Positions 6,873-62,662 are shown, counted from the whole stretch's first letter. The stretch is DNA of 63,981 nt, filler included, from Stramenopiles sp. TOSAG23-6 (GCA_900128565.1; 4 parts of 4 records of this genome joined end to end with filler, not necessarily neighbours in it); one strand, 5' to 3'. Numbers and translations are program-made. Notes: generated by a model from the sequence alone, not told the origin.

Positions 6873-9744
6873 TTACACTGTCTCTGAATCATCTTTCCTT
6901 ACTATTAATTCTGCGACCACACCATTATTATCAGAAACACCTCCAACAGGATCCAATGCTCTCATTTGAATTACACTCTGTGTCTCCCAAGATTGAGGAA
7001 TTTCATATTGAAAATTGCCACTTTTAAACCATACAGCCTCAGTTGTAACAGTATCAGACCATGATGATCTGATTTTTTGCTCCTGTAGATAATCAATTTG
7101 CTTTTGGTCAGGTGTTCCAAGATAGTGAGAAACAACACTTGTAAAGTCTCCCATTACAATGTCAGTACCAGCTCTAAATATCTGGTTGATAGCCTCAACC
7201 TTGACCTCAGTAATGTGTTTTTCCTGGGCATTATCTTCAACTTTCTCTCCACTGCAAAGATCCACATTAGCCACTACAATGTTTGTGCTTGGTCTTAGTT
7301 TTAGTTCCAATTTTAACAAAAGTGTTTCCCTCTGTATTTCACAAAACTCTGCAGGAATCTTCTGCTTACTCTCCTCACCTGGTGATACATCCCAATCAGA
7401 ATTACGCCTCAATAAAAATGCTTGTAGATGAGTACGCTGTATCTGTTTACCATTACCACCTACATAGAGATTCCTCATGACTTTTTCATAGCATGGAGAA
7501 AAGTCAGTATGTCGGTCAAATAATGGTACTGTCTGCAAGGCTACAACATCTGGAGTATGTATTTCAAGTTGCTGTGCTAGAGTGTCACGAATGTATCATG
7601 AAAATATATTATGTCAAATTCGAAATTTGTTAGTATATTATAGAATTTGGTACAGAGAAATATTAACTTTGAAATTCATGATGAAAACGTGCATTTCTTC
7701 TGGCCTTCTTCCATCAGGGTTTACCAATCCCAAATTGATTGTTGCCACCTTAATTTTTGGATATAGACCCTTTTCACTTATTACTTCTCTACAGATTGGT
7801 AGTCCATAATTCACTTGATAAACTGGAAGAACCGCCTGGATATCTCTTACCATAAAGTAACCAGCTACTGTATCGGGGTAGTCACGATTCATACTCCAAC
7901 TATCGTATTTTGCTTCCGGCGTTTCATAAGATTTCCATTTTGCATTTGTTTTTGTTCTTCCTGGTGCTACAAGATTCAAAATGACACTTCCATGATATGA
8001 TCCATCATCAGTATTACCAAAATGAAAAGCTGGTTCTGTCGCATATCTATCTAAATAAACTGCATTCCCCATTACATTTCCATTTTCCCTTGGGTGTCTT
8101 TCTCCATCATATATTTCACCACCTATACGGTATCCATCTTCAAATATTTTTTCTCTTGCGTTCTGATCACGACATCCATGCCATAGCCATTCTAACTTGT
8201 CTGATACGTCTCTTTTTTTTAATTCTTCAGCTTTTTTGTAAAACGGAATCGATAGCTTTTCATTTTCACATACAATAACAGATTTTACCTCACGTTCGCC
8301 CCAAGCATTGTCCCATTCCCAACCTTCTCTTACCTGCAAAGTTTTAAATTTTCTGGCTGCAAATTCAAAGTGACTCTTGAGAAATGGATCTTTTTCTGTT
8401 GAAAATATTTCAACACAATGTGCCGAATGGGTTATCTTTGCTTCTCCTTTCGCATCGGACTGTCTGACACTTTTCTGGAGTGGTTCCGGAAGATGTCGTT
8501 TAGTTACATATTGCCATTTCAAAAATGCAGATTTTAATTTACGTGAAAGGAACTTTAACTTTTCTTCATGTAATGCCAAGAGTTTTTGTCGATCATTTAC
8601 TCCAAGTACCAAAAAAGAATGTTCATGTATCCCTAATTCTGGGTGAATTGCATTTAATAAACTTCTAATATGATTTTTTTTCAATGATACATTATTCCAT
8701 TCAACGAGCTGACATGTACTGTGAAAAATATGTAAATAAATATATCGTAAGATATGAAATTTGGTACAAAAAAAACTTTAAAATTGATGATGAAAAAGTA
8801 CGTGTATCAGCAAACAACTGCCTACTCTCTTCTAAACCAGGAAGTGGAAGAAAACTATCTTCAGTTCCAAGAAAATCCAATAGAAAACGTTGACGTGCTC
8901 GTTCTCTTTTTCTATACTTTTCTTGGAGAGGATCTAGATCAAGTAATGTGAAAAAATATGTCAAATTTGAAAATCCTCAGATATGAAATTCATTACAAAA
9001 AACGCTAACCCTAATTAAAATTAATGATAAAAACGTACAGATAAAAAGGGATACCTTTCAAAAGCTACAGCAACATTGTCATACATAACTTTAGCACCTT
9101 TCAATAGATTAATTTCAAGTTTTATCTTTTCTCGAGGATCCTTGCTTCCTTTTTCACGTGCTCGATGTATTGTGAAAAATATGTAAAATTCGAAATTCGT
9201 TAGGTATGGAATTTGGTACAAAAACAAAATTGAAATTTTACTGATGAAAAGGAAAACGCACAGGTACTTCAAGATGCCTAATTCTGCTTAAAGCATTTGC
9301 TTCATAATTTTTAAAAAGTCTTTCCATTTCGTCTTTTTTTTTTATTATTTGTACTTTGTCCTTGTTCATTTCTTCTTTGTACTTGTTTATTTCTTCTTTG
9401 TATTTTAACAATTCCGATAGCTTTTCTTCTAGAGCCATAATCTCTATTTGTTTTTTGGGTGTTCTTTTTCTTTGGTTCCTTTCATGAAGTATTTTCTCGC
9501 GTGTTTTTGTTACTTCTGCATCAAGATCCGGGTGTTTTATTAATTTTAATTTTGCTTCGTGAAGTTCCATAGAATGTAATGTACTTTCATGAAATTCAAC
9601 AATGACTTTCCTATCTTGAAGAATTCTCTGGAAAATCGCTTCATGATGTTCTCGACGTTCCGTCCTCAATTCATATTCTTTGGCGGAAAGTGCCCCATTC
9701 ACAGTGACAAAGTTTAGAAATAGTAATAAGATACATATTGACAT
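6873..9744 (-). CDS. Five-exon gene: signal peptide, coiled coil, PARP-like catalytic domain and degenerate EEP domain
   Basis: Five ORF pieces join in frame after removing introns 9165-9261, 8941-9038, 8714-8801 and 7591-7692. PARP-like WLWHGC..KIFEDGY..GNAVYL..VLPVYQVNY; EEP-like PDVVALQ, VMGDF, SD. Confidence 0.7.
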
Positions 9745-10095: not shown

Positions 10096-11121
10096 ATGGG
10101 GACTACGTTTTCAACTAAATCGACGGAAGCAGTGTCTACAAAAGGTGATTTCAATTCAAACCAAAAAAGCGAAAAGATTGGTTCAAGCATAGATGAAATA
10201 CATGCTCAAGTTAGATCCGCTTATCATCGTACAGCAGAAGGTGGATCTCTTGCTACAGGTGCTTCTGCAGGTTGTTGTGGTGTTGAAAGGGACTATGACG
10301 CAGTATCAATGCGTTTAGGCTACACTGCGGAAGATATTGAAAAAGCTGGGGAAAGTAACCTTGGTTTGGGGTGTGGCCAACCCGTTAGTTGGGCAAACTT
10401 AAAACCTGGTGAGTTTGTTATTGATTTAGGCTCAGGTGCAGGTTTTGATTGTGTTTTAGCTGCTGGTCAGGTCGGACCAAAAGGCAAAGTTGTTGGTATT
10501 GACATGACACCTAAAATGGTTGATAAAGCAAATAGGAGTGTCAAAGAAAAAGGTTTGTCTGAATATGTACAATTTATTCATAGTGAAATTGAACATTTAC
10601 CTGTTGAAAGTGGTATGTTTGACTGTTTATTATCAAATTGTGTAGTGAATCTTTCTCCTGATAAAAACCAAGTATGTACGTTTTCAAAATTGAATTTCAA
10701 ATTTTTATCTTTTTTTCGTACGAAATTTCGTACCTAATGAATTTTGACTACATTTTTTTTTCACAAAACATGTCGAGAAGCCTTTCGAGTACTCAAAGAA
10801 GGTGGAAGACTTTGTATATCTGATATTATTGCGACAACAGAAATACCAGAAAGACTTCAAACTGCTGAAGCTTTGGCATGCTGAGTTGCAGGAGCCTCAC
10901 GAAAACATGAATTACAGACAATGCTTGAAAATGCTGGCTTTGTCAATGTATACATTGAAGAGAAACCTACAAGTAAGAATTTTATAAAGGATTGGCTTCC
11001 TGGAAGTGGTGCAGAGAATTTTGTAGTTTCTGCAAAAATATCAGCAAGTAAACCAATGATGGAAGTACTAGGAGTCAAAGATGAAATCGTTCATTCGACT
11101 ACTACATCTAAAAGTCGTTGA
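10096..11121 (+). CDS. AS3MT: Arsenite S-adenosylmethyltransferase (ArsM/AS3MT family), two exons, probable selenoprotein
   Basis: [37 protein letters not shown]. Removing 10676-10771 gives [20 protein letters not shown]. In-frame TGA at 10882-10884 in AC*VAGA, after which family-like sequence continues. The start codon is the first in-frame ATG. Confidence 0.9.
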
Positions 11122-12294: not shown

Positions 12295-13197
12295 TTATAA
12301 GAAGTATTTATACCAAATCAAACCTCCCGCCAAAAGTAGTAAGGGTGAACTTTCCAGAGCATAATTTACCTGACTAGTGATTTTTGTATATAAAGTTGTA
12401 TCCTCTCTCTCCTGTGTCAAAGTTACAAGTGAACTCACTAAAGCTGACATCCTATTATAATCAAGATCCCAATAGCAGTTTTGATTCTTACGAAAATTGA
12501 TTGGAGTTCGCTCTGTTTCGTCTTGCATCCCTCCAAATGCAAATACAGTGTTTATCAAATATGTCACATTCAAAATTTGTTTAGGTACAAAAAAAACATA
12601 GAATTTGAAAGGATAGAAAACCTTTGAAGTGAGTATGAAAAAAAAAACAATTTAAAATTTAAAATTTAAAATTTAAAATTCATGATGAAAATATAAATTT
12701 AAAAAAAATACATTGTTAGGTACAAAATTTCGTATGAAAACAAATAAATTTGAAAATAAAGTAAAAACAACATACATTCATCATAGATTTTACGATATCT
12801 TTTCGTTTTCTCTTTTTCAGGTTCAATTGAAATTGTTTTAGCATCGAAGGAATCTCCTCTCGTATGATAACACGCATTTCGCATTTCTGAAGTGTCTGCA
12901 ATTAAAATCGCTGGAAGTTTATTTTCCCAAAATGAAGCATGTATTTTGGAAAAATATTTGAAAATAAATCTAAAAACTTTTGTTAGGTACAAAATTTCGT
13001 ACGAAAACAAATTCGAATTTGAAAAAAAATAAAACATACATGGTCAGAACGCATGAAATCATTAAACAATCCTGGATTTTCCTTTGCATTTGGGAGCTTC
13101 TTGTACATTGTGGATATTCTTGATTGATTTGAACCATAATTACAATTAATTTCTTGGTATTCTTTGATTTCATTGCGAGCTTTTAAAAACAAATACA
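12295..13197 (-). CDS. M28-family peptidase-like gene, 3' part only (5' end lost at the inversion junction)
   Basis: Removing intron 12939-13039 rebuilds RSDH|ASFWENKLPAILIADTSEMRNACYHTRGD. Exon structure between 12575 and 12775 is unresolved. C-terminal hydrophobic tail. Confidence 0.65.
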
Positions 13198-21328: not shown

Positions 21329-23345
21329 ATGGCAATGCTTGCAAACTCAGCAATGATTAAAGAGGAACCGCTTCCTGCAGTTCGCCCTGCTGGAGGTGGT
21401 GCCCTTGATGGTTTCGAAGCCGCTTTTGGTGTCAAGTTAGAGTCTGCGAATCCAGTTTCGAAGCGCCCGTTCTCTTCGATATCAACACCACAGCCAGGAG
21501 GTGGTAATAAACGATGGGCAAGCAGCAGCGGTAAAGCGAAGGATGTTGATCGAAGCGGATTAATGTCTTTTGGGTCTCCAGCGCCTCGCGTGAATAACAA
21601 AGCCAAGACTCCTGCGTCAACTTTGGCTTCGCGTTATACGAGTCGCTTGAACGCCGGTAAAGTAGCTTTTACATACAATAAGCAAATTCCTGTCGCCCAG
21701 TCAACAGCTAACGAGGTATCACTTAGTACACAAATGGTTAATGCCAATGTTTCAGTGAAGGTTCTTAGAGGACTTACTAAGGAACAACCTCGATACATGT
21801 ACACCTCCATGTCCCAGAGAGCTCAGGTTATGGAAGACCGTTTACTTGGAATGAGAAAAACTCTGAAGCAACAATATCTTCTTGGAGAAATTACACCTGT
21901 AGGGGTACCTAGTCAAACTGTTGTAACTGTAGTGGGTCGAGTGTGTTGTGAGCCACCTGCTGGTATGACAGAAAATGAACGCGAGAGGTTAGATGTAAAG
22001 GGATTAATGTTAGAAGGGTCACGAGAACACTCTCGTGGAGCTCGGGTACGTCTCAATTTGAAGCGCATAGCAGCATTTTCTCTTTTCCCAGGACAAGTGG
22101 TCGCCATACAAGGTATCAATGCAAGTGGTTCAGAGATGACAGTTCATCGCATTTATCATGGATGTCCAAGGTCTGCAGCTGCAACTCCTCTGGAAGAAAT
22201 TAGAAGGTTTCAGAGCAATCGTGCTGGAAAGCCTTTATCAATATGGGCTGCGTCTGGTCCATTTACTTTAAGTAGCGATTTAAACTATTTACCCCTTGTG
22301 GACATTCTTAACGAAGCAAAAATACACTCGCCAGATGTTATCATGTATTTTTTCAGCATCAATTTTAAATTTATTTTTTTCGTACGAAAGTTTGTACCTA
22401 ACAAAAAAATTGAAAATATTTTCCCAAAATACATACTCCAAGGTCCATTTGTTGATTTAAATCACCCTATGGTAAAAAGTGGAAGACTTCGTATTCCAGA
22501 TCTAGAGAAGAAACAGACAGGTAGCACAGCAATGAAGGATGTAACTTACGACCAACTCTTTACTGAGCAAGTTATTCTTAAAATGTTGGTGGAAATGTCA
22601 CATTTAGATCTTAAAAGTAAAATTGTGTTAGTTCCGTCTATACAAGATGCACACCATACACCAGTATTTCCACAACCAGCATTTTCTTCGCGCTTCTTCA
22701 CCGATGAATTGGGTAGTGATTTCACAAATAATGGACAGATTATGTCCGTACCAAATCCCTCAACGCTGAAAATTGGAGACGTCACCATGACAGTTGTACG
22801 TTTTATATGAATTTCCAATTTAATTTTTTTTTTCATACGAAATTTCGTACCTAACGATTTTTTTGTAGAAATATTTTTTCACAATACTTGGTAGTCATGA
22901 CATTATTGGGCATCAACTTGGTCGAGACTGTTACCGCTGGGCAGCTCAAGCAGCTGCAAAGAATGCAAAACGGCCAAAGAAGCCAATGATTCTTGCAGCA
23001 AACTGTATCAACCAGCGTAGTATGTACCCAATTTTCCCACCAAAACAAGGATTTCCTCTCGACTTGGCGTTATTACGTCATGCAACTTTGCCATGTTCTC
23101 CTGATATTTTATTACTACGATCACAGCTCAATTTCTTTGCTGATGCAATGCCTAGTGCTGCAACGGGAGGTGCGAATACAATTGCTGTGAATGCTGGGAC
23201 ACTTTGCAGAAAATGTGCTCCTGGAACATATGCTCGCATTGTGATTCAGCCACTTAAGCTGGAAGATAAAGACAACCAAACAGAAAGTGAAGCCAAGACA
23301 CACCAAATTTCATCGCGAACTCGTGTTGAAATTGTTAGGATTTAA
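21329..23345 (+). CDS. POLA2: DNA polymerase alpha subunit B, three exons
   Basis: VVGRVCCE, SLFPGQVVAIQGINASG, ASGPFT. Removing 22345-22434 gives PDVIILQGPFVD; removing 22796-22889 gives NPSTLKIGDVTMTVGSHDII. Also QRSMYPIFP and PDILLLRSQLNFFA. Confidence 0.93.
22796..22889 (+). mobile_element. Introner-like intron, GT..TT, flanking TT repeat
   Basis: GTT|GTACG...CACAATACTT|GGT joins the POLA2 exons in frame. Confidence 0.8.
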
Positions 23346-23481
23346 ATGAAAAACATATTACTCTCATTACACGTATATAAGCTATATACTCGACTTTTTT
23401 GGAGAAATAAGATTGAAACACTTTTTTAGTAATTAAAAAGCTTTATTTGTCAATTATAATACATTACACTCCATATTGTTT

Positions 23482-26395
23482 TTATTTCTTTGATAATTTT
23501 TCCAATATTTTCATGCGCGTTTGTTGATCATAATTTGTCGCAGAATATATATTTTGAACAAAAGCTCGAAATGAAACAATTCCAGGAGCTTCTTGTTGGT
23601 ACTGATGAGAACGATCTTGTATCCATGATCTTGGCGTTACATTAGCTAGAACTTGACATATGGATAGTATCGCTGTTATACCCCATCCGCTTACGTTATA
23701 GGTTTCAATATTTGACTTTATCTTTTTCAACATTGGAATTATAAACCCTTTCAAAACACTCCTAATGGCAATGTTCGCTAATCTTCCTTTGATTGAAACA
23801 TCTTTAATCTTGTTACATCGGCAAATTGATAAATATAAGCATAACATTTCAAATATATTCAATGTGAATTTTTCACTAACTTGTCCCGAAATAGTATTTA
23901 TTTCAGAAGGTGGTTGAAGTAAACTAATGCAATACTCAAGACGTTGGATTACTGCATCACAGAGCATTGTGAATGGCTTCCATGGTAGTGTTTGTGATGA
24001 CGACGTTGGATTCCTATATTGGCGTTCTTTATTATGACTCATTGGTCTATACAATCCAACTTCATTTATATTATCAACAACGCTTTTCGTTTGGCGATTA
24101 CTTTTATTTGGAGCCCAACAATGCTCAATAGAATGAAGCAAACATGGTACAATGGAATATTCAACAAGAAAAGGAAGAAGTTTCTCCTCAGCCTCGCCAA
24201 TATCATAATCATCTCTAGCACCCTCAGTAAAGATATGATTGTAGCTATACAAATCCTTCCACCACAAAAACTGTTGGAATCCAATCACACCCATATCATC
24301 ATCATATAATTTGTCATTTAAAGATTCGTCAGATGGTGGGGGTTGAGGACCAAAGGATGAAACAGGTTCCAATGGCTTCAATATAAGTGGATCCCATGTA
24401 GAAAGTACCTCTAACTTTGCCCATATAGATATTAATTGAGGCATTGAAAACGCTACGTACGCTTGACCATAGGCTTCAGGGGATGTTATACGAATTTTAC
24501 GAAATCTTTCAACAACTTGTTGTAAAGACTTACAATTTGATTTTTCATCTACATCTGAAAATACCAAAGATGCTGCTTCAAGTGCACTTTTCCTTCTTTC
24601 TTCGATAGAATCATATATAGATTGTTCAAATGGTAAAATCGCATTTACTGTAAACTTTCCTTCAGATGAAATACATCGAAAGTTTGGACAACCAAATTGA
24701 ATGCTAAATCCACTTCTATCAAAACCACATGATAATTTATCAATCGATTTTAATGCATTCATTAAAAAACTCATAGATTCTCTCGGATGCATTGTACTAT
24801 TCGTAAGCCATAATTTACATACTTCAATGGATGAAATGTATTTTGGAAAAATATTTCAAAAAAAACGACTAAAATTTGTTAGGTACACAATTTTTTGAAA
24901 AAAATAAATTCGGAATTGAAAAAAATAAAACATACATGATTCTCGGATTATTTGGCATTTCTTCTGTGACATTTTTAATACAGGTTTGTACTTTGTTTGT
25001 AGCATCAATTCGTAGTTGATAAATTGCTTGCTCTAACTGATCGACTTTTGGTAATTTATCTCGTACACAACCAACTAGAGTTTTCCCATAATCGGCAAAC
25101 TTTTGTAAAAAAACATGTACTAAAGAATAATATTTTTGTTTTGTAAAATTTGTTAGGTATGAAATTTCGTATGAAAAAAAAAATTAGATAAAAAATTAAA
25201 AAAAAATCAAACCTACATACTCATTTGATAAAATATCTATTTGTTTTTCTATTGATTTAGCTGATTTTTTTGCTTCTACAGATCTTTCTTCCATTTCAAT
25301 CAATTTTTGTTCAGATTGGTATTGAATACTTTCTACTGCTCGTAATTGAGTCTTGAGAATTTGTATTATTTCTACAGTTGTACGAAGGGTAGATAAATCA
25401 CTACTTGAATATTCACTCATGGGACGTACAGTCATCGTAGGGTTATTGTTGTTTTTACTTTGAAATGTATTCGAAACTTTACCAAAACTAGCTTTGAGTG
25501 CACGCTGTATCTGCTGTTGCTCCCACACACTTTGCGTTTGACCAGTAGCTACAGTAGAAGAAATATTATCTATGTCATCAACACTAAGCTTTGTAGACGT
25601 CTTATTGATTCGTTCGGTAGAAAAATCAGTCGGTCTCAATTTGGAATGTCTTCCTACATTTACATTGTCGTCACCAGTGACTAATACAGAGTCATCACGT
25701 TGACCATCACGTTGGCCAAGTAACACGAAATCACTTCCTTTTTCTAGCGACCCTTCTTTTGTATTCCGCTGATGAGCTCTTTGTAGCTTTGCTTGTCGAA
25801 TCTTACCAGCATCGAAGAGCGGCTTTGCTAATGATATATCATCACCGGGTAACTGTGCATCATCTTCAAGACTGTACTGTTCCGATTGGTCCTTCGTGAC
25901 ATTTATTGTTTTGTACTGTTGCTGCTTACGAAGTTTTGCAAGAGACTCCACAGAGTAATTCCCCCCACCACTTATTGTACGATTGGTACTATTTATCGAT
26001 ACTTCCTCTTTACGTAGTAGAGTAGAAGCTTCTTTTGTTTTTCGTGTACTACTGTTCTTTGTTTTTTTTCGATGCAGCGCACGTGATACTTTAGACTTTT
26101 TAACTTTGAAGACGGATGTCTCTTCACCTTCCAGCTCATCTGTGCAGAGGCTCATACCTCTACTATTGATCAAAGTATTGTGATTTGTACTACTACTTCT
26201 AAAATTGCTGTTGCTTTTCTTACCCTTTTTACGTGAACGTTTTTTAAATTTCGGCATATCAGATTTTGGTACTGTTATTGGAGCTTCCACAGGAGTTGAA
26301 CTTATACTGACATCTTCATCTAGATCACCAACTGACGACGTAGGTCTAAAGGAAGCCATTCGTCTCCTACGTTTTCTTTTATTAAATTCAGACAT
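23482..26395 (-). CDS. GC-rich sequence DNA-binding factor-like protein (GCFC2/PAXBP1 family), three exons
   Basis: WEQQQIQRA; YVFLQKFADYGKTLVGCVRDKLPKV after removing 25115-25216; VFSDVDE and YGQAYVAFSMP..WDPL. Second intron 24836-24935 joins in frame. Confidence 0.8.
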
Positions 26396-26708
26396 TTGAA
26401 CACTATAATCTATGATTTCAGTGAGAAAATACTGAGCCGCAAATAGAGAGTTAATCAGGAGAAAACGTTAGGTTCATTTCAATAATATTAGTACACCACG
26501 TTATCAATGATTAGTTCGTCACGAGTGTCGGAGAAATATTTCGCGATCGCTCAAGCTAACCCTAACCCTAAGCGATTATTGTTGGGTCGTGCCGTGATTC
26601 CTGGGCAGTCAAAAAGTTTGGAGACCCTGACACCCTGTCATAATCGTCATAAGAATATGATAATATCTGATAACTTTTCGAAAAAGACGTAGAGTTTCGA
26701 AAATTTGC

Positions 26709-27809
26709 ATGGCATTACTGAGTACAATTCCGCTTTATCAGGTGGACGCTTTCGCCGAAGCCCCATTTGCTGGTAATCCGGCTGCTGTATGTTTATTGGC
26801 ACCTGGAGTTCAGCCCAGTGATGACGTTCTTTTGAAGATTGCTCAAGAAATGAACTTATCAGAAACTGCGTTTGTTCAAATAGTAGAAGGAGTTGATTTT
26901 AGCTCGGGTCGGAAATTTCGCTTGAGGTGGTTCACTCCAATGTGTGAAGTTGCTTTATGTGGCCATGCAACTATGGCGACTGCTTCTGTGATATTTTACC
27001 AAAAAGGAAATAAAAATCAAAAGATCGAGTTTGAGACAACCCAAGGCGCAGGCAGTCTATTTGCTTCTATTGGTCCAGTGGATAGTGGATATCAGACTGT
27101 TTGTATGGAACTCCCAGTCAATGCACCAACGTCATCAACTCGATACACACTCGAAAATATCTTGGTGAAGAGACTTGCAAAGGCTCTAGGTTCAAATATA
27201 TGTCCAAACATATTGTCACACTTGGTAGACGTTCAGTATTCTCAGACAACTAAGAAACTTTTACTTCGTCTTGATGATACGTTTAGTCGAAAGGAACTTG
27301 AAGATTTGAAGCCAAACATTTCTGATTTATTAGCCGCGACAAAAGGTAGTGACGGTGTAAAAGGTCTAATTATAACTCTACGAGGAAATGGAAAATATGT
27401 ATGTTTTATTTTTTTTCAAATTTTATTTTGTTTCATACGAAATTTTGTACCTAACGAATTTTTTTTTTCAAATATTTTTCCAAAATACATAATTTTTATT
27501 CAAGATATTTTGCACCCTGGGTAGGTATCAATGAAGACCCAGTGACTGGAAGCGCCCATACAGTTTTAGCTCCATACTGGAGTCTTCAATTAAACGTAAA
27601 AACTCTACATGCAAGGCAATGTGTACGTTTTATTTTTTTTCACGAATTTTTTTTCGTACGAAATTTTGTACCTAACGATTTTTTTTTTCAAATATTTTTC
27701 CAAAATACGTTCTGCCAGGGGTGGGGATTTATTCTTGGAAATTTGTGGTAAATTTCTGTCTGTCACTGGAAGCACTGCTTTAGTTTTTTCTGGGGATCTC
27801 GTATTGTGA
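26709..27809 (+). CDS. PBLD: PhzF/PBLD-family epimerase-like protein, three exons
   Basis: QVDAFAEAPFAGNPAAVC, EMNLSETAF, LRWFTP.CEVALCGHAT. Removing 27399-27490 and 27623-27710 gives KYNFYSRYFAPWVGINEDPVTGSAH and ARQCSARGG. Confidence 0.93.
27399..27490 (+). mobile_element. Type example of the introner-like non-AG intron (GT..AT, flanking AT repeat)
   Basis: TAT|GTATGTTTT..CATACGAAATTTTGTACCTAAC..GAAATATTTTTCCAAAATAC-like end..AT|AAT; removal restores YNFYSRYFAPW. Confidence 0.85.
27623..27710 (+). mobile_element. Introner-like intron, GT..GT, flanking GT repeat
   Basis: TGT|GTACG...AAAATACGT|TCT restores QCSARGG; the intron contains no AG. Confidence 0.85.
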
Positions 27810-28136
27810 AAAACACGAAATTTTACCAAAAAAAACTGGTTTCGTACGAAAAAAAATCGAAATTGAAAAGATATCACAAAATATTTGAAAAAAAAATCGT
27901 TAGGTACGAAATTTCGTACGAAAAAAAATCGAAATTGAAAAGATATCACAAACATTAGTGTCTTTGGAAAAGTGTAAAACAGAGCATAATACGAAATATA
28001 TAGTGCATATTATTATTATTATTATTATTTATAGTATACTATTATTCGTTATGTACAGAATTTGGTTTAGTTTTTTATTATTTGAGTATTTTTGTATCCT
28101 TGTAGGTTTTTTTTTTTGAGGTGATGTCAACAACTG

Positions 28137-29851
28137 TTATTTCTTGTTAGGGTTAGGGTCAACAACTGGGATTTCTTTTTCAACCTCTCTTTTTCGTTTT
28201 CCTTTACTATCTTTTTTCCTTCTTTTTTTTTCAGCTGGGGGGAATAAATACACATCAAACCTTTCTTTTAATTCATCCCAGTGGAAGCGTCGAAGCTTAA
28301 CACCATGAAGTATCTCACGCCTGTATTATAAAAAAAATATGTCAAACATTTCATTTCTTTATTAGGGTTAGGGTTAATAAAATATGGTACATTTTTTTTT
28401 TATAGTATACACGTACACCCTATCACGCAATCGACTGGGATAATTACAAAAATCTTTCAATTTTCTTACCAGTTGTCTTTCAGTGTTATAAAGACATTCT
28501 TTGGGGAAAAAGTCTGGATACGAAAGTCTATTTGGACAAACCGGGAAACATGTCTTGTGGGAAAAAAAAATTACAAAAAAAAATTGTTAGGTACGAAATT
28601 TCGTATGAAAATCAAAAAAAAAAAAAAAATTAGAAATTCATATAAAACGTACATCCTTGCCAAGCACATTCTAGTGTACTTACACCAAAAAATTCGTGAT
28701 CTGCAGTAGATAGTGCCACGTCAGCATCCCGAAGCACATTTAAATATTCCTTTCGAGAAGGTAGATACCCCCAATGTAAAACATGATTATTAAGTTTTTC
28801 TCTTGCACTTTTGAATATTTCAGGGGTCTCTTTAAAACTTTCTCCAAGAATTGAGATCTTAAAGTTACATGTATTGTAGGAAAATATTTTTTTTTAGTAA
28901 ATTTTTTTGTTAGGTACGAAATTTCGTACGAAAAAAAAAACTAAATTTGGAAATTAATGATAAAAACATACATCCTTTATCTTTTAATTCAAGAAGCACG
29001 CGGAATAATAAATCTGGATTTTTGTCGAATTCCCAGCGGTGGGCCCATACAATATGTAAAGGTAACGTTGTACCAAATGTGTCAGAAGAACGTGAGGTGT
29101 AATTTTCAACTACATTGATTTTTCTATTGAGGTTATTTGGTAAAAGTAACTTATTTTCAATTGAGTTGTTTTTTCTATCGGAATTTTTTTTTTCATCGGT
29201 TGTATCCAATGAAACAATAGTAGCACCTTTAGATAAATGATGTAAAGGTTTAACATCTACTAAAGGTGTAGATGGGGACATATGCAATGGGAAAAAGAGA
29301 ACATCGGATTTAGCTTGGATGCGTTCAACAACATTTGAAGGACGACAGTCTTTTGGTATACGTGATAATATACGAGGTATGTTATCTAAAAAACATTTAC
29401 GATTATAGGAAGAATTAAATAACACCACATCCGCAACGAGAGAAGAAACAATTTGATTCCACCCAAGAGCCCAGTCACGTTGACCCGCAGCATCTTTTTG
29501 GCGACTTGGATAAGTCAGCTGGTTTTCATGGAAATAATATACCTTATGTAAACTCGATAAATCGGGACGCATTCCAAGAAGTTCACACAAATTCAGCATT
29601 GAGCTCGCAAATAATGAAGTAGTATTGTTTTTTGATGGGTTAGGAATTATCGTTGCGAAATGGGCCGCTGATACCAACAACCGCCAGTGCCATTTTTTAC
29701 CTGGAAGAGTAAAAATATCTAAAGAATGACAAGAACTCGGGGAGTTGTAAGTTTTAGCTAAGAGATCTACAAACTGCTGATGTGAACCTCCACCAAACGG
29801 CTCAATTAAGATTGCATGTCGTGCATTCGTTTTAACAAGCAAATCAGTCAT
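28137..29851 (-). CDS. GTDC1: GTDC1-like GT4 glycosyltransferase (DUF3524), four exons
   Basis: EPFGGGSH, KWHWR, YFHENQLTYP, FNSSYN, WAHRWEFDKNP, HEFFGVS. Introns 28869-28971, 28550-28652 and 28321-28416 restore the frame (GCFPVCPNRLSYP). Confidence 0.9.
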
Positions 29852-33059: not shown

Positions 33060-33151
33060 GTATGTTTTATTTTTTTTCAAATTCGAAGTTTTTTTTTCGT
33101 ACGCAATTTTGTACCTAACGATTTTTTTTTGAAATATTTTTCCAAAATACA

Positions 33152-33302: not shown

Positions 33303-34784
33303 ATGTGTCAACATTATCAATAAAGTTGGCGAGATAGATTCCTTCCAAACCTTTTACTTTTTCAAAATCACATTTTATGTAGGCAAATATTTCAATGATT
33401 TTGTTTTGTAACATGTTAGTGTACATGTAAATGTATTTTTTTAATATGTTTTTGTAATTTCAGGAAAAAAAAAATCAAAAAAAAAAAAAAAAAAATTTAA
33501 AAAGAAATTCAAAAAAAAAAAAATTAAAAAAAATATCGTTTTTTCAATGATAACATACACGTTCCTGCAAGATTTCGTCGATTATGTGGTAAACTGAGAG
33601 TATATCCTTTGCCTTCCGCATCTGATACATAAATATTTCCCCAATTTGATTTTTCGCCGATATGATTTACATGCAAAAACACGGAATCTTCAGAAGTATC
33701 CAAAATTGTATACGACTGTATTTTTGTACAATATTTCATTTTTTTTAGTAAAAATTGTTAGGTACAAATTTACGTACGAAAAAAAAATTCTGAAAAAAAA
33801 ATTGAAAAAAAAAATTGTTAGGTACAAAATTTCGTACGAAAAAAAAATTGAAAAAAAAAAACGTACATGTTCTTTTAAACCTTCAAATGGCATTTTTGCA
33901 ATATGAAAATGTTGACCACCATCACTTGAAAGATTCAATTCAACCGCTTCAGAGTTATGTGCTGTGACTTGTGCAACAAATAAAAACTTTGGTGTAAATA
34001 AAAATCGATTTCCACGTTTGACGAGAACTTTTGGTTGAGTTTTCCAGTAATCAGTTGTTTCTACAAAATCAATACGTTGATCCCAAAAACCAAATCTTTG
34101 ATGTCCAGATTTTACATTGAATTCTGTAGCGAAAATGGCATGTAGAGGGAGTCTATCCGCTTGTCCTCGTTCCAGATTATGTGCCCATTCAAACTGGACA
34201 ATATAATGTTGAAGAAATTTCCACGTCGCACCAAAATCTTCCGATAGGTACAAATTTTTGTAACAAAATCCTTCGCTTGATTTATTCTTACAGTTATCTG
34301 ACATGACTGCGGCCAAGATCAAATTCACATCTTTAGGATGCATTTTCATTTCAGTAAAGACCATCTTTTCATTAATTGTAGACCACGTTTTCCCACAGTC
34401 TTTTGTAGACCAATGAACTTTGTCTTTTGAAACAAGAATCGCAAAGTCTTTATTTACAGGACTTTGAACGATTTCAACAATTCCTTTTTCTTTTTGGAAC
34501 TTTTCAAGTCTTGATGTTTGATTGGTCCAACTTCGACCAGCATCAGATGATCGATACACAGTATTTTGTTCAGTCAGGAGAAGAACAGTTCGACTTTCCG
34601 CACCCATCCAAACCATATCTTTAACCTGTCCTTCAATCTCTTTCTCAGTGACGACAACATTTGCACTAGCACGACTAAGACTCGCTGCGGTTGAACTCAT
34701 TCCTGACGTATAATACGGTTGTGCTACAACCATAGAAAACAGTGAAATTATGAGTAGACAAGGCTTCATAGTATTTGCTTTCAT
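33303..34784 (-). CDS. Vps10/sortilin-family receptor, 5' part
   Basis: Signal peptide; BNR/Asp-box repeats (YRSSDAGRSW, STKDCGKTW, LYLSEDFGATW); GNIYVSDAEG..YTLSL; DFEKVKGLEGIYLAN. Introns 33716-33866 and 33372-33558. Confidence 0.88.
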
Positions 34785-35066: not shown

Positions 35067-36398
35067 ATGAATGCCTTATTACGATCCGTCGGAACATTAC
35101 CAATACGAAATAATGTTATGCGTTGCATGGCGACGCAATCTGTATGTTGACTTTTGTAATAATTCAGTTGGACTTGTGTCTCATGTTTTATTCTTTCCAA
35201 AATACTTTTACGAATCAACGTGTGTTTCTTTCTTTTTTTCTTTTTTACGCACAACTACGAACACATGTACTCATTTTATCCTCTTGAAATACACACATAA
35301 CTATTATACAATACAGCAAAACATGAAAACATTTCAAATTTACAGATATGACCCAGAAGGTTCTGCTAAACCTACACTACAATCATATGACGTTGATATG
35401 AACGAATGTGGACCGATGGTTTTAGATGCACTCATTAAAATCAAAAACGAACTTGATGCTACTTTAACCTTTCGTAGATCTTGCCGTGAAGGTATCTGTG
35501 GATCATGCGCAATGAACATTGACGGTCGTAACACACTCGCATGTCTTGCTCATATTGATACTGAGAAATCGGACTCTAAAATTTACCCACTTCCTCACAT
35601 GCACGTTCTCAAAGATCTTGTTCCCGATATGACCAACTTTTATGAACAATATCGTTCTATCGAACCTTGGTTACAGACAAAAGAAACCAAAGATGAGAAT
35701 ACTGAATGGTTACAAACAAAAGATGATCGTAAGAAATTGGATGGAATGTATGAATGTATCTTGTGTGCGTGTTGTAGCACATCATGTACGTTGTTCTTTT
35801 TGGAATTTTATTTTGGTCATTTTGGACATTTTGGAATTGTATTTTTTTTTAATTTGGTTTTCATCATACATTTGTTTGAAACCAAGCAGTAGTAGTAGTA
35901 TTCTTCAAACTATTCAAATGAGTGTTTTTGTAGAAAAAAGAATTCATATGATTCGATTTTGTATTTTTATGAATTTTTTGTAGTGTACCAATTTTGTCGT
36001 AACATTTTGTTGAATTTTTATATTTTTTCACAAATCAGGTCCTAGTTACTGGTGGAATCAGGATAAATACCTAGGTCCAGCTGTTCTAATGTACGTTTTT
36101 CATAATGAATTGTATAGGACTCATTCCATATTGTTGTTGTTTTTACTATGAAACATTTGTATCTAACAAAGAAATATATTTTTTTGAAAATATTTTCGTA
36201 CATGACATGCAAGCCTATAGATGGGTGGAAGATTCACGTGATTCAATGACAAAGGAAAGACTGGAAGCTTTAAATGACTCTTTTAAACTGTTTCGTTGTC
36301 ATACTATTATGAATTGTACAAAAACATGTCCTAAAGGGCTTAATCCTGGTAAAGCTGTGGCTCATTTGAAAAACAGAATTCATGAAGGCAATTTATAA
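35067..36398 (+). CDS. SDHB: Succinate dehydrogenase iron-sulfur subunit, four exons
   Basis: Exons 35067-35141, 35317-35785, 36039-36090 and 36209-36398 give [42 protein letters not shown] and [17 protein letters not shown]. Confidence 0.97.
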
Positions 36399-40336: not shown

Positions 40337-43300
40337 TTAAAAATCTGGAATACTAGTAAATTTTTTACCAATATTCATAATTCTCTGTCTTCTTCTTTGT
40401 GTTCTAGTCAATGGTTTTGGTTTCTTAAATGGTACAAATCTGTTTTTCTTTGCTTTTTCTTTTCTTCTTTGTCGTTTCGCTTCAATTTCATCACTATCAT
40501 CATCACTATCAGATATACAACTATCTTCTTCATCATCTGTATTTTGGGTTGGATTTGATTTTGATTTAGTTTTTAATAGTTTAGTATGAAATTTTTGTAG
40601 CATTCGTACAGCAGCTAAAGGTCCAGTTACATGAGACTGTCCGTCTTCAACTGATATTGTTGATCCTAGACTCATCTCTGAATTCAAATCTGTACTTAAA
40701 TCTGTACTTAAATCTGTACTTATACTATTGGAAGTGTCATTTGTTGCCGTTGATATAGATTTATCATTTTGTTTTTCATCATTTGTGTTTTTTATATTTT
40801 TTTGTACTGTATCATTACTTTTGTTTGTATTAGATTTTATTTTCTTTTGTTCTTTTTCTAAAAGGTCCTTTTTTTTCTTTTCTGCTTTTGCGAGTTTTCT
40901 TGCTTTTTTTGCTTTTAATTTTTCAGCTTTTCGTTTAGCTCGTTTTTCTTTACGTAGTTTTTCTAATTGTGCTGCTTTTTTTGCTTTTTTATCTGCAATT
41001 TCTTGTTCACGAATTTTCTTTTGTTCATTTCTAAAAGCTACTCTTTGTTTATGTCTTGTGAAAAAATATTGAAAAAAAAAAAAAAAAATTATTCAGTATG
41101 AAAGTTTCAATGAAAAAAAATAAATGAAATTATACAGTGGATCACGTACAATATATGACTTTCCACTACCTGGAGATGAAACTGAATTTGAACCAAATAC
41201 AAAATATTCATCAATTTTAAATGGTTTATCTATTTCAGATGTTTCAGATGTTTTTTTATCTACATTTTTTTTGGTATTTTTTGTATTTTTTTCATGTTTC
41301 TCAGTAATCATTGGGAATGGTTTAGTTACAGGTTTGTCAAAAGAATAATATATACCATTATAATAATCAGGTTGCATACTAATACCTTGCGTTACACCTC
41401 GTGGAGTACCTCCTTTGATCTCAGGTTGAATTAAATGTTTTTTTTCTATATTTTGTTCTATATTTTGTTCTTCATTTTGTTCTTCATTTTTTTCTTCATT
41501 TTTTTCTATATTTTCAAAATGAAGTATTGTTTCAAAATTTGGTATTTTCATATTTATAGTATCACTTGTAATACTATCATTTTCTTCAGAATGTTTGGTA
41601 TGTAAAGATTTGTTTTGTATTGAATTTGTTGATTGTTTACCTTCTTCTATTATTGGATTCTGAAAATGTTGATCAGCAGGTGTAGCAGGTCTGTCTAACA
41701 TAGATATTAATTCCGGTAATGAATTATTTTGCAGTTTAAAATAACTTTCTCTATTTACATGTAGTATAAAAAGATATTTCAATCATTTGGTTTGTTTTTG
41801 TTAGGTATACGAATACAAAAATAATACAAAAATAATACAAAAATAATACAAAAATAATACAAAAATAATACATTTTTTTTTACAAAAAAAAAAGTTTTGT
41901 TAGGTACGAAATTTCGTACGAAAAAAAAAAACAATTTGTAAAATTCATGATGAAAAACATACATCTGATTCCTTCACTCTTTGACGAAACTTTGCCGCAG
42001 TGCCACGTGTCACTGGTCTTGCATTACGTGGTATAATATTTGACAAATCCATTGTATGAAGTAAAGATAAATTTTCATTTCTTTCCATCTTTGGTATTTT
42101 TGATATTTTTGGTATTTTTGGAGGTTTGAATGAATCATTTTGTACAGCTATAGATAACATTGAATGTTCCATACTTTTAGGGTTAGGTTTNTCGATATGT
42201 TTCGGATTTTTTTCTATACTTTTTTTAGCTACAATTTCTTCAATTGTTTGAGAAGATGATCGTGTCACTGGACGACTATTGAAAAGACTCTTTGCATCAT
42301 CACTATCATAATCTTCATCATTTGTTTTAGACAATTGTTGAGTACCTACAGAAATATTTTCATTTTTTTCATTTTTTTCATTTTTTTTAATATAGTTTTT
42401 TCTTTTTTCCATTTGTAATTTTATTCGTGCTTTATTTTGCCTAGCTTCCCTCAATTTTTGTATCTGTATTTGCTTTTGTTGAGCTAATCGAATCTCTCGT
42501 TTTGAATTCACTATATCCCAAGATGATGTACTTATGGAAAATATTTTAAAATTTTAATTTTTTTTTTGTTAGGTACAAAATTTCGTACAAAAAAAAAAAA
42601 AAATTAAATTAAAATAAATGTTTTGAAAGACGTACAAGGTTGTTTCTTTTGTAAATTTAATTTTTCAGATACTTTATGTGAGTGATGTACCATGTGTTGT
42701 ACAGAAATATTTAAAAAAAAATAATTTAGGTTTTTAGTTTTTAATTTTTTAAGTTTTTAGTTTTTAATTTTTTAGTGTTTGACTTTTTTGTTAGGTACAA
42801 ATTTTTCATACTAAAAAAAAAAATATATATAAAAAAATTGATACTGTAATGTAACGTACATATTATTCACATTAGCATGTGACGTTTTAAAGTGTTGTTG
42901 TTGCCTTGCTAAAGATTCCTCTAAAATATATATTGTAGGAAAATATTTCAAAAAAAAAAAAAATATTTTTTTTGTTAGGTACAAATTTTACTATAAAAAA
43001 AAATAAAAAAAAAAAATTTCAATTTTGAAAATCTACATGATTATTTTCTACTTTGTATACTTTACGAATAAGAGCTTGAGTGCCACGTGTCATTTCTCGA
43101 ATTTTATCTACAGCATGATGCCCTTGTCGTTTATGTGACGTTCGTAATCGTGACTTTGGTCTTTCTGCAATGTTTTTTTGATATTGTAGATATTTTTGAT
43201 AATTTTTATATTTTTGATATTTTTGAAATTTTTCATTTTTTTGAAATTTTTGATTTTTTTGAAATTTTTCATTTTTTTGATATTTTTGATATTTTTGATA

Positions 43301-44413
43301 TTTTTGTTTCTCTGATTGCAACAATGCATCTCTACTATCAAGTCTTTGTTTTTGTTGAGACATTTGTTTTGTATCATTTTTATCATTTTGAATATCATCA
43401 TTTTTATTTTGATCATTTCTATATTGAATATTTTCAATATTTTTTTTCGTAGATAATTTCGTACCTAACGTTTTTTTTTCTTGTGGACGATCAACACTAA
43501 ACTGACCATCTACAGATTCATAATATACATCACCATCTTCATCAATAAATTCTGACCATCCCAATGGTAACCTTGGTGTACTTTCTTTTGTATCTACATC
43601 TATAGGTACATCATTAGGGTTAGGGTTTTCAAACTCCTCAAAAATTTCATTATTTTGGATTTTTTCTCCAAACGAATTTTTTTCAAAATTTTCATTATTT
43701 TCCAATGTTTTCGTGTATTCACGTAAAATTTTTCCAGTTCGTCCAGGATGTGCATTTGCTTCTTTCCAAGCTAGACCAATAATTATATTTGAAAGAGTAG
43801 GAAATCGATTTTGAAGATTTCGTGCAATATTTTTCATATCTTGAATATTTTTTGAATTTTTTAAATTTTTTGAACTTTTTAAATTTTTTAAATTTTTTGA
43901 ATTTTGTAGTAAAATTTGTACTAAATCATCAATATTATTTTTTTTTTCAATGACATGTTTTCTATTGATTTCGTGTGTACGCATAATTGTCCCTCCTTGA
44001 ATCTTTGCTGATCGACTACTACCATCTGTCAACATTTTTGTATGTCGATTTGATAATTCATATTTTTTACGTAATTTTTCTTTTCTTTTTTCAGAAAAAT
44101 GTTTTCTATTTATTTCGTGTTGTTGTTGAAGATTTTGTTCTGTTTGTGTTGACTCAAAAGATTCACTTAAAATATTTTCTACAACAAATTTTCCTGAAAG
44201 TCTGTGTAATAGTGTATTTTTATTATTATTATCATCATTATTATCATTATCATTATTATTATTATTAGTAGTAGTAGTATTATTAGTATTAGTATTATTA
44301 TTATTATCATTATTATTATTATTATTATCATCATTATTATCATCATTATTATCATTATTATTATTATTATTAGTATTATTAGTATTATTATTATCATTAT
44401 TATTATTAGTAGT

Positions 44414-44468
<55 letters not shown>

Positions 44469-44504: not shown

Positions 44505-45842
44505 GTAGTAGTAGTAGTATTATTAGTAGTAGTATCAGTAGTAGTTGTATCATTATTAATAAAACCATTTTCAGTACATTGTAAATATTTTCTAATTTCA
44601 ACTAATTTCAAACAATTTGCCCAATCTAGAGCTGTTTGACCAGAGTTATCTTTACACAATACATATTGAGTAAAAAAATATACCATACAACAAAAAAATC
44701 GTTAGGTACGAAATGTTGTACAAAAAAAATTAAAAATTTTCAAAAAAAAAAATCGTCATCAAAATCATTAGGTACAAAATTTCGTATAAAAAATAAAATT
44801 CATTATACTGTCAATAACATACATTACATTTCTGTGATATTAAATATTGAACAATATTTAAATGTCCTTCCTTCACAGCATAGATGAGTGCATGGATTAT
44901 AAAAAAATATTTCAAAAAAAAAAAAAACGTTAGGTACAAAATTTCGTATGAAAAAAAATTAGACAAAAAATTAAAAAATGAAAACGCACATTTTCACCAG
45001 TTATATTATTTTGAAGATGTATATTAATGTTTGTTTTTTCAATCAAATCTGGAATGCAGTCCATGTTTTATAAACAATATATAAACAAGAAGTAAAATTT
45101 GTTACATACAAAATTATTTTTTTAATTAGTTTTGTACCTAACAACAAAAAAAAAAAAAAAAAAAAAAAAAAATTTAAACGATTTTTTTTTTTTTTCGGTA
45201 AAAAAAAAAAAAAAAATAAAACGCACATTGATTCTGGCTGCTTCGTGAATGCAATACACACCATGTGAATCTTTAGCATTAACAACAATTTCTGTTTATA
45301 TTGTGAAAAATATTGTACATTCGAAATAGGTCAATAAAAAACTTAAATTTCTTAGGTACAAAATGTCGTACGAAAAAAAAATTTAATTTGAAAAAAAGTC
45401 AAAAAATATTTTTTTTTTTTTTTTTTTAGGTTTAGGTACAAAATTCCGTATGAAAAAAAAAATGATAAAATACTTTACCTAAATCTATATAAACACGTAA
45501 GAGTTGATTTGCAATGTGGATTTGACCTTTACAAACGGCACATTGTAGTGGATAACGCCCTTTTTCATCCTTTTGAAGCAACCATGATGTAATCAGTGTT
45601 GTTGGTATAGTCTTATTTGTGTTGCTTTTGTTATTTGTGTCATGAGTTATAGTGTTATTGGAGACATAATTCAACAACGCAGTCATGACTTTAACCGCAC
45701 CTATGCGTGCTGCAAAATGAAGAGGTAAAAGTTCATTCATTGCTCTGGTATAATTACTATCATTTATATATGTCATTGTAGACGTATCATCATCAATTAG
45801 AATAGCTTGCCTCAGTACAGATAAAGCAGAGGATGATGTCAT
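40337..45842 (-). CDS. Large multi-exon protein: ankyrin repeats, Asn-rich tract, WW-like domain, low-complexity/coiled-coil C terminus
   Basis: LPLHFAARIG, VNAKDSHGVYCIHEAA, TGENALIYAVKEGHLNIVQYL, KDNSGQTALDWA; LPLGWSEFIDEDGDVYY. Frame is restored across introns 45296-45473, 44892-44989, 44663-44822, 42928-43036, 42692-42859, 42526-42635, 41759-41962 and 41051-41149; one junction near 45070-45226 is uncertain. Confidence 0.75.
44220..44558 (-). repeat. (AAT/GAT/ACT)n trinucleotide tract encoding poly-Asn/Asp/Thr
   Basis: Visible TTA/TCA/GTA triplet run inside ORF 43019-44686. Confidence 0.95.
45296..45473 (-). mobile_element. Introner-like intron, GT..AA, flanking AA repeat, two core copies
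   Basis: AAA|GTATTTT...CACAATATAA|ACA joins to the ankyrin motif VNAKDSHG in frame. Confidence 0.7.
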
Positions 45843-62465: not shown

Positions 62466-62662
62466 GAACGTTTTCATTTCGATTTTTTTTTTTTGAAATT
62501 TTTTTTTTTTTGAAATTTTTTTTTTCGTACGAAATTTTTTACCTAAAAATTTTTTTTTGATTTTTTTTTTTTTTTCAATTTTTTTCCAAAATTTTTTTTC
62601 GTACGAAATTTTTTACCTAACAATTTTTTTTTTTTTTTTTTGAAATATTTTTCCAAAATACA

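Follow-up and report, generated by a model that had tools for sequence, protein, structure and literature searches.

Introns that derive from miniature inverted-repeat transposable elements (MITEs) and do not end in AG are already known. In the available sections of the papers that treat them, those of Fritillaria borealis and F. pellucida are described as abundant, lineage-specific and flanked by a short duplication (Henriet et al., 2019, via PMC13326754 and PMC11282704); the termini in F. borealis are AG/AC and AG/AT with a TAC/YAY triplet on either side, and in both species AT is the most frequent 3' acceptor (PMC13326754; PMC11282704). The introners of Micromonas pusilla and Aureococcus anophagefferens, as the available account presents them, are GT/GC-AG introns whose AG lies in or beside a duplication of at least 3 nt (Huff et al., 2016, via PMC11282704). 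The introner elements of Amoebophrya, in the sections of the paper at hand, possess inverted repeats of 8-20 nt that form a hairpin and direct repeats of 3-5 nt, with no fixed terminal dinucleotides (PMC7789003). Among DNA transposons, the ISL2EU group (PHIS, i.e., PIF/Harbinger-ISL2EU-Spy) is described as making 5'-AT-3' target-site duplications in the context A|AT|T (PMC4482050, in the part available). Here we describe a family of introner-like elements, about 43 in 64 kb, in DNA of Stramenopiles sp. TOSAG23-6 (GCA_900128565.1). The window, i.e., the whole stretch of DNA that was analyzed, comprises 63,981 bases, and together with one public metagenome contig (L001) it makes up the sample. 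The boundaries of the elements, the reading frames and residue-level junctions restored by their removal, their non-AG 3' ends and the match between their flanks are read directly from this sequence.

As far as these sources describe them, the known systems each share part of the character of this family. Like the Fritillaria introns, the elements appear to use the 3' copy of a duplication as a non-AG acceptor, mostly AT, and the YAY-ending introns found there have a counterpart in the CAT (22) and TAT (4) ends among the 37 box-bearing copies analyzed here. Unlike in Fritillaria, where the donor is AG, the donor is a canonical and conserved GTAYGT (GT in 36 of 37 copies and GC in one), the duplication is a 2-nt AT rather than a TAC-type triplet and the host is a protist rather than an animal; the acceptor is YAT in 26 of 37 copies, while C-A-T precedes the donor in at most 13. 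With the Micromonas and Aureococcus introners the family shares short, non-autonomous copies in sense orientation, a division of labor in which the element would give one splice site and the duplication complete the other, and a coding sequence that is restored. It differs from them in a duplicated dinucleotide that is AT in most copies and an acceptor other than AG in 34 of 37; AG ends number three, and homology supports AT, TT and GT. As in Amoebophrya, repeated non-canonical introns, read as MITE-like, have direct repeats that overlap the exon/intron boundaries (PMC7789003); unlike there, the inverted repeat is 3-5 nt (its tip is perfect over no more than 4 nt in 36 of the 37 copies), the direct repeat measures 2 nt and the donor is canonical. 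An RNA hairpin joining the intron ends was considered and rejected, since the ends pair in 7 of 37 minimum-energy folds (median z -1.0); no Amoebophrya-like or euglenid-like terminal hairpin was found in the folds of the 37 copies. The general hallmarks of introners are present: many similar copies in unrelated genes, matching flanks and a precise removal, presumably at the RNA level, by which the coding sequence is restored.

What is new is thus the pairing of a canonical GTAYGT donor with NT acceptors, a 2-nt AT duplication and the host lineage. An earlier reading of the window made from the sequence alone (hereafter the sequence-only reading) had compared the family with the AG-ending introners of Micromonas and Aureococcus, a background that was incomplete, given the non-AG, MITE-derived introns with flanking target-site duplications known in F. 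borealis and Amoebophrya (PMC11282704; PMC13326754; PMC7789003, in the sections available). Large surveys of introners, in the part available, drop or check by hand those families with unfamiliar splice sites and rely on annotated introns (PMC12130899). A literature search found no publication that combines 'introner' and 'MAST-3', and the words 'splice' and 'repeat' are absent from the main text of a paper on single-cell genomes of such stramenopiles, whose supplements could bear on the matter.

Element layout and restoration of coding sequence

The elements share the layout GTAYGTTTT(A)T-rich…TTTTCRTACGAAATTTYGTACCTAAC…T-rich…GAAATATTTTTYCMAAATAC, followed by two bases (NN) and then by the exon; the short form of the box core is TACGAAATTTYGTACCTAAC. 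They are about 86-230 nt long. With at most one mismatch, the 9-mer box GTACCTAAC occurs 60 times in the window against 6.8 expected. An nhmmer search returned 51 matches, mostly partial and local, and the curated set consists of 37 full box-bearing copies and six diverged copies. A boundary rule blind to the flanks, which takes the closest match to GTAYGTTTT together with AAATA plus 14 nt, set both ends of 22 of the 37 copies; the six diverged copies, which lack the box, were added later and chosen by eye. GTAYGT is the best-conserved part, within the donor consensus GTATGTTTT, and the box lies 33-99 nt (median 42 nt) from the 3' end. Identity to the closest relative ranges from 59 to 89%, and the median over all pairs is 60%, compared with 51% in a shuffled control; the sequence-only reading had overstated the copies as 'nearly identical'. 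The similarity extends over parts that are not splicing signals, and subfamilies are common to unrelated genes. The start GTAYGTTTTATATGAATTTC, correctly seen before as shared by the copies at 22796, 61908 and 28652 (-), is additionally found at 51310 (-). The host genes encode DNA polymerase alpha subunit B, PhzF, SDHB, a flavoprotein, an ankyrin protein, Vps10 and others. Each of the 43 curated copies runs in the same direction as the flanking open reading frames (ORFs), and only a few fragments are antisense or intergenic. Judged by their sequence similarity, the elements are one homologous family inserted in unrelated genes.

The copies in conserved genes are as follows, where the two dinucleotides are the upstream flank and NN, respectively.

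22345..22434, plus strand, DNA polymerase alpha subunit B introner, AT/AT, …ATAC+AT, 90 nt; a seawater DNA contig spans its 5' junction
22796..22889, plus strand, second DNA polymerase alpha subunit B introner, TT/TT, …ATAC+TT, 94 nt
27399..27490, plus strand, PhzF-family introner, AT/AT, 92 nt
27623..27710, plus strand, PhzF-family introner, GT/GT, 88 nt
35786..36038, plus strand, diverged SDHB member, flank AT, NN AG; 3' box TATATTTTTTCACAAATC+AG; STSC|PSYWWN restored
36091..36208, plus strand, SDHB introner, AT/AT, 118 nt
61908..62026, plus strand, Pyr_redox_3 flavoprotein introner, flank GT, NN GG (mismatch)
62148..62280, plus strand, Pyr_redox_3 flavoprotein introner, AT/AT

Reading frames show how much is removed. 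A frame was taken as determinable where each flank has 40 or more open codons and no fewer than 1.5 times those of the next-best frame; 24 of the 26 determinable copies then need the element plus 2 nt to be removed, against a chance of 1/3, while one needs +0 (10676) and one +1 (51567). Six junctions in four conserved proteins are gapless in comparison with homologues, and a seventh is ambiguous. In DNA polymerase alpha subunit B, the junctions PDVI|ILQGPF (22345-22434) and TMTV|GSHD (22796-22889) are each gapless against eight homologues. In PhzF, GKY|NFYSRYFAPW (27399-27490) is gapless against homologues, as is ARQC|SARGGD (27623-27710), where use of the next AG would remove the conserved S-x-R; a solved-structure search with PhzF exon 1 stopped short of the junction, and a Pfam search with the 32-residue last exon found nothing. 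At the SDHB junction VLM|QAYRW (36091-36208), the upstream exons end at residue 168 of 1yq3_B and the last exon begins at residue 186, and a 17-residue middle exon exactly fills the gap between them. The flavoprotein junction YPTSSIP|LFPGSDLCLHNS (62148-62280) is gapless against P0401. The ambiguous junction is ADG|NGFEVDV (61908-62026), which is gapless against the homologue P0404, while an end 3 nt later (…AAT) suits other homologues equally.

The acceptors validated by homology are AT, TT and GT, each with a final T. The introns of the 37 copies finish in CAT in 22 cases, TAT in four and CTT, CGT and CAG in two each, with CTG, TAA, AAT, TAG and TGG once each. Between the box and the 3' end, 17 of the 37 copies leave an AG unused. 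The earlier claim that the element is removed without a scar, together with one copy of the dinucleotide, agrees with the 24 frames and six homology junctions; its addition 'whatever its sequence' went too far, with every validated 3' end being NT and 31 of the 37 predicted ends finishing in T. That the 3' splice site is set by position, two bases past the 3' box of the element (…TTTTTYCMAAATAC), and not by the terminal dinucleotide is a tentative idea that we hold to be possible but doubtful.

Where the flank and NN are the same, the 2-nt repeat makes three cleavage registers indistinguishable. Transposon-derived introns might then be cleaved 2 nt further left, after …AC, and the AT-flanked copies would belong to the AT…AC kind, with the A(+1)/C(-1) pairing known from AT-AC introns of the U2 or U12 type; wherever the flanks match, the mRNA would be identical. 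AC is indeed the last dinucleotide of the element in 26 of 37 copies, and the box ACCTAAC is similar to the U12 branch consensus TCCTTAAC. This reading is nevertheless quite improbable: the conserved GTAYGT suits pairing with U1/U6 only if cleavage occurs immediately 5' of the G, and the six copies in which NN is AG (three core-bearing and three diverged) are canonical GT…AG introns in register 0 only. In U12 introns, the donor is /ATATCCTT and the branch site lies about 10-20 nt from the acceptor; the former motif is absent here, and the distance of 33-99 nt is longer than the latter. U12-type (AT-AC) introns as such were rejected on the same two grounds, i.e., the donor GTATGTTTT and the distance from the box to the 3' end.

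Contigs from three RNA runs and one independent seawater DNA run were mapped to the window, and 15 of their 315 joints are listed. The elements are present in DNA, because contigs of the independent run cross the element-exon junctions at 22345, 22889 and 25216. Seawater DNA contigs with foreign copies stop matching at 22887 (TT flank) and begin at 33060 (CC flank); beside AT flanks the match continues for 2 more nt, to 16744-16746 and from 27396-27397. These match ends indicate that the element proper is GTA…TAC and that AT is its usual flank genome-wide. The RNA contigs shown are short ones confined to exons. A suggestive hint of splicing comes from one 157-nt RNA contig that aligns from 22888, which is the predicted acceptor within the 2-nt ambiguity, with the 14 preceding letters placed elsewhere. 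We infer that the elements are removed by the spliceosome at the RNA level, since the donor is canonical, a CTAAC-containing box lies 42 nt (median) before the 3' end and all 43 copies are sense-oriented.

Short elements with a 2-nt direct repeat and precise excision would also be expected of excision at the DNA level, like that of the TA-flanked internal eliminated sequences of ciliates, and an artefact of single-cell amplification or assembly would accord with assembly pieces that break inside elements and with the 3.4-kb inverted duplication in the first piece, typical of an amplification chimera. Both are scarcely credible. The independent seawater DNA run has identical element-exon junctions, the copies carry a full set of spliceosomal signals in sense orientation, the ORFs are open with the standard code, which does not point to a ciliate, and no joint skipping about 90 nt is among the 15 DNA joints listed, beside which there are 300 more.

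The public gene models P0121 (21317-23345), P0241 (26709-27809) and P0392 (61164-63043) have non-homologous residues or gaps exactly at the introner sites, such as a 6-residue insertion in P0121 at the site of 22796-22889. These models force GT-AG introns or read through the elements, which accounts for their intron-derived residues or skipped exon. The public gene models are wrong at the introner sites checked.

The flanking dinucleotide and the origin of the elements

NN is identical to the upstream dinucleotide in 26 of the 37 copies (AT 22, TT 2, GT 1, AA 1), a count close to the 26 of 38 or so in the sequence-only reading, whose examples are all correctly placed (AT/AT at 22345, 24836 and 27399; TT/TT at 22796 and 51175; GT/GT at 27623; AA/AA at 45296). 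Among the copies bounded by the blind rule, 17 of 22 match, including both TT/TT and the GT/GT copies. The comparison with chance that this reading had called for was run on the 37 copies of the window: when NN is permuted among the copies, 18.8 match on average against the 26 observed (P = 0.00014), and of the 12 copies with a non-AT upstream flank four match against 0.54 expected (P = 0.0009). When the register is slid, 26 matches are obtained at offset 0 only; other offsets give 0-8, except for offset -4, which gives 16 because AT lies inside ATAC.

The match is also related to divergence. Matched copies have closer relatives than mismatched ones (median best identity 0.77 vs. 0.70; one-sided Mann-Whitney P = 0.008, 43 copies), and all seven of the closest-related copies match. 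The test is not blind, because the six added copies were picked by eye. The retention of the match in copies with close relatives fits a target-site duplication that decays with age. The GT/GG mismatch at 61908 is synonymous and the other mismatched copies are in poorly conserved proteins, so that homology does not separate register 0 from -2 in mismatched copies.

AT makes up the upstream flank of 25 and the downstream flank of 27 of the 37 copies, compared with an AT background of 0.10 in the flanks. The target context is (C)AT(G), with C at -3 in 13 of 37 copies (p = 0.005; A in 7) and G at +1 in 19 of 37 (p = 2e-6; T in 7). This context is palindromic, and the targets of transposases often are. 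The direct repeat is 2 nt and extends backward to 3 nt in five of the 37 copies. The ends are inverted only as GTA(Y)…(R)TAC, with a tip that is perfect over 3 nt or more in 17 copies and over 4 nt or more in nine, and with 4.9 inverted matches over the first 10 terminal positions vs. 2.9 in controls; of the terminal inverted repeats claimed earlier, this much stands.

We propose that these observations are probably explained by a non-autonomous cut-and-paste element that inserts at AT, duplicates AT and carries its own splicing signals, the duplicated dinucleotide ending the intron. One family of short non-autonomous DNA elements would have invaded the genes of the window, acting as spliceosomal introns (introners). 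Each copy would bring a U2-type donor GTAYGT, a branch-site-like box …TACGAAATTTYGTACCTAAC, whose predicted branch adenosine lies a median of 42 nt before the 3' end, and a T-rich 3' box GAAATATTTTTYCMAAATAC. Insertion would duplicate a 2-nt target, usually AT in a loose (C)AT(G); splicing would cut at the GT of the element and then 2 nt past its last base. The element and one copy of the duplication would be removed and the original coding sequence restored, and the intron would read GT…(C)AT, …TT or …GT rather than GT…AG. In older copies, the exonic copy of the duplication may have drifted, and in several the intronic copy may have become AG. The flank match would accordingly be a target-site duplication made by a transposase. 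The mobilizing enzyme may be a DDE transposase of the ISL2EU/PHIS type, a candidate suggested only because that group makes AT duplications; the 2-bp AT duplication seen here is its likeness to the group, as far as the available description of the latter goes. The derivation from a DNA transposon, which the sequence-only reading had also proposed, is likely, not proven: a sense-oriented family in unrelated genes with non-AG ends speaks for it, and a minimal inverted repeat and the lack of a transposase among 50 ORFs do not.

Several results weigh against this explanation. No transposase (DDE/THAP or other) and no YqaJ ORF was found among the 50 window ORFs scanned with Pfam, and neither an empty site nor a presence/absence polymorphism was seen among the 15 of 315 joints listed, which likewise include no RNA joint across an introner. 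The terminal inverted repeat is only 3-5 nt, and the copies are at most 89% identical. A scan of public contigs with a 20-nt box pattern returned just one further copy, on L001 (AT/AT), and zero viral contigs. Curation may be biased, with at least one end set by eye, from terminal 8-mer homology, in 15 of the 37 copies. Mismatches amount to 11 of 37 and, with the diverged copies, to 17 of 43 (26 of 43 match), and all six diverged copies mismatch; most mismatched copies keep NN = AT, which would also fit AT as a 3' splice signal. The C-A at -3/-2 and the G at +1 also resemble an ordinary exon-junction consensus, and the A|AT|T context given for ISL2EU in the available text is not seen here, where the flanks favor C and G. 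The non-AT covariation comprises four copies, of which two are in one subfamily and the AA/AA one has a weak donor and putative borders. Four non-AT matches are also obtained at one of 14 other offsets (+6); the covariation beyond the AT bias, to which the sequence-only reading had pointed, is therefore suggestive and not conclusive, for all that four of 12 matches exceed expectation.

Many of these points would also be expected of an intron family with long constrained splicing signals, in which the AT before the donor and the AT at the acceptor are separate signals and no target-site duplication exists. Such introns would spread, if they do, through reverse splicing or gene conversion and not through DNA transposition. 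The AG|GT…AG|G arrangement of other eukaryotes offers an analogue. Such a family accounts for NN = AT in 27 of 37 copies whatever lies upstream, including six of the 11 mismatched ones, for diverged copies that mismatch and still end in AT, TT or AG, for a -3/-2/+1 context like a protosplice site, for the weak inverted repeat and for the four non-AT matches in one slid register; in Fritillaria, too, YAY triplets are described as flanking both sides of the intron (PMC13326754, in the part available). We regard it as unlikely all the same. TT/TT (twice), GT/GT and AA/AA co-vary against 0.54 matches expected, and within one subfamily NN follows the flank (TT, TT, AT), with GG beside GT. The similarity between copies spans non-signal parts, including subfamily-specific stretches, and composite, truncated, antisense and intergenic fragments exist. 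Where the flank is not AT, the match to foreign copies breaks off exactly at the ends of the element, and the agreement of the flanks declines as copies diverge. We thus retain the transposon-derived introner as the preferred explanation.

Remaining copies and content of the window

The other box-bearing copies are listed below; k is the number of bases removed beyond the element.

9165..9261, minus strand, introner, flank CT, NN AT (mismatch)
10676..10771, plus strand, methyltransferase-gene introner, AT/AT; flanking frames need k=0, not element+2
12546..12775, minus strand, long composite copy, flank AT, NN TG (mismatch)
12939..13039, minus strand, introner, AT/AT; 86% identity to the 27399 copy
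24836..24935, minus strand, introner, AT/AT, 100 nt; frames need element+2
25115..25216, minus strand, introner, AT/AT, 102 nt, diverged ends GTAGGT…GTAC; a seawater DNA contig begins inside
28550..28652, minus strand, introner, AT/AT; subfamily start GTACGTTTTATATGAATTTC
28869..28971, minus strand, introner, AT/AT
33716..33866, minus strand, composite two-box copy, flank AT, NN AG; reads GT…AG
41759..41962, minus strand, composite copy with internal tandem repeat, AT/AT
42526..42635, minus strand, introner, flank TT, NN AT (mismatch)
42692..42859, minus strand, introner, AT/AT
42928..43036, minus strand, introner, AT/AT
44663..44822, minus strand, composite copy, AT/AT
44892..44989, minus strand, introner, AT/AT; ends GTGCGT…ATCC
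45296..45473, minus strand, composite two-box copy, AA/AA; weak 5' site GTATTT, borders putative
46891..46984, plus strand, introner, flank TT, NN GT (mismatch)
47089..47196, plus strand, introner, flank GT, NN AT (mismatch)
47311..47427, plus strand, introner, flank AG, NN AT (mismatch)
48642..48747, plus strand, introner, AT/AT; 14-nt direct repeat
49052..49253, plus strand, long copy, flank TG, NN AT (mismatch); 3' end overlaps an opposite-strand copy
49905..50066, minus strand, copy ending in AG, flank TG, NN AG
50347..50469, minus strand, introner, AT/AT
50737..50857, minus strand, introner, AT/AT
51175..51310, minus strand, introner of the 22796 subfamily, TT/TT
51461..51567, minus strand, introner, AT/AT; flanking frames need k=1, not element+2
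53048..53142, plus strand, introner, AT/AT; flanking frames short
53526..53672, plus strand, composite copy, AT/AT; probably in an untranslated leader
53826..53970, plus strand, composite two-box copy, AT/AT
63421..63540, plus strand, GC-donor copy ending in AG, flank AT, NN AG

The other diverged copies and three partial or rearranged ones are as follows.

8941..9038, minus strand, diverged copy without box, flank CT, NN TT
28321..28416, minus strand, diverged copy ending in AG, flank GT; CCCTAA repeat at the box position
33372..33558, minus strand, diverged copy, flank GT, NN AT
41051..41149, minus strand, diverged copy, flank TT, NN AT
62470..62663, plus strand, putative long diverged flavoprotein-gene copy (third intron), flank AC, NN AT; 5' end uncertain
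27830..27945, minus strand, rearranged copy just past the PhzF stop codon; internal duplication, flanks differ (AT vs. GA)
33060..33151, plus strand, copy clipped by the end of an assembly piece, flank CC; one base (A) visible after ATAC
43425..43480, plus strand, box fragment of about 35 nt, antisense within the 560-codon ORF 43022-44701 (-), which stays open

The last fragment may be exonised or an antisense remnant. At 48640-48761, the AT flank and the first 12 intron bases (14 nt) are exactly repeated after the element and into the next exon, far above the usual 2 nt; the downstream exon begins with GTA in seven of the 37 copies overall. At 49052-49451, two copies on opposite strands overlap by their tails: the plus-strand copy has a 3' end that is the reverse complement of that of a minus-strand copy starting at about 49409. 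Element 3' ends are linked to element 5' starts in dozens of DNA contigs and in a few RNA contigs (positions 16744-16746, 22887 and 24836 to 27396-27397 and 33060), one RNA contig having only a few letters between the two; such joints may represent short exons lying between introners, tandem copies or circles.

The window, with about 35% G+C, consists of four pieces of about 16.4 kb connected by N44-TTAATTAATTAA-N44 linkers at 16590-16689, 33152-33251 and 49537-49636. Several piece ends lie inside introner copies (16690, 33060-33151, 33302 (-) and 49448), as is expected if repeats break the assembly. Positions 1-3400 are the reverse complement of 13190-16589 at 99.97% identity, a 3.4-kb inverted duplication in the first assembly piece that doubles a CAP-Gly gene, contains zero curated introners and looks like a chimera from single-cell amplification or assembly.

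Eukaryotic genes are tightly packed, and Pfam identified DNA polymerase alpha subunit B, Nop53, Ldh_2, DUF285, PhzF, SDHB, a Na/H exchanger, CAP-Gly and others. The named homologues of DNA polymerase alpha subunit B are mostly from stramenopiles (Ectocarpus, Ochromonas, Nannochloropsis and Tribonema), and the two best of them have EukProt labels starting with GSMAST32. The source was therefore treated as an uncultured marine stramenopile akin to MAST-3, with compact and AT-rich DNA. A search of the window against Rfam gave no match at gathering scores. Tandem repeats occur within coding ORFs, with units of about 57 nt at 44214-44558 in ORF 43022-44701 (-) and DUF285 repeat units of about 220 nt at 57420-58618 in the gene at 56697-58922 (-). 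The telomere-like CCTAACCCTAA occurs 12 times vs. 0.01 expected, at 26561, 28147(-), 28362(-), 42177(-), 43614(-), 48895, 50608(-), 51017-51039(-), 53205 and 63271, and is also found at about 2300-2330 of L001. Five or six copies are in frame within long ORFs, where they would encode Pro-Asn repeats, four are intergenic and one is within a diverged intron, taking the place of the branch-site box of the family.

Implications

Gene finders bound to GT-AG err at introner sites. The three public records compared here insert intron-derived residues or lose real ones, which would degrade proteome-based analyses of the group, and other proteomes in this lineage are likely to be similarly affected at many genes. 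The AT duplication provides a lead towards an ISL2EU-type transposase as the mobilizing enzyme.

This stramenopile would be the third independent lineage, after larvacean tunicates and Amoebophrya, in which a burst of a DNA element created non-AG introns, and the GTAYGT donor combined with AT, TT and GT acceptors makes a clean natural test of how far the second splicing step tolerates non-AG ends. If the acceptor were indeed positional, the transposon would be a self-contained splicing cassette that could be inserted at any coding dinucleotide and removed without a scar, and its host would possess a relaxed-acceptor spliceosome that arose independently of that of Fritillaria, in which duplicated U2AF subunits are implicated.

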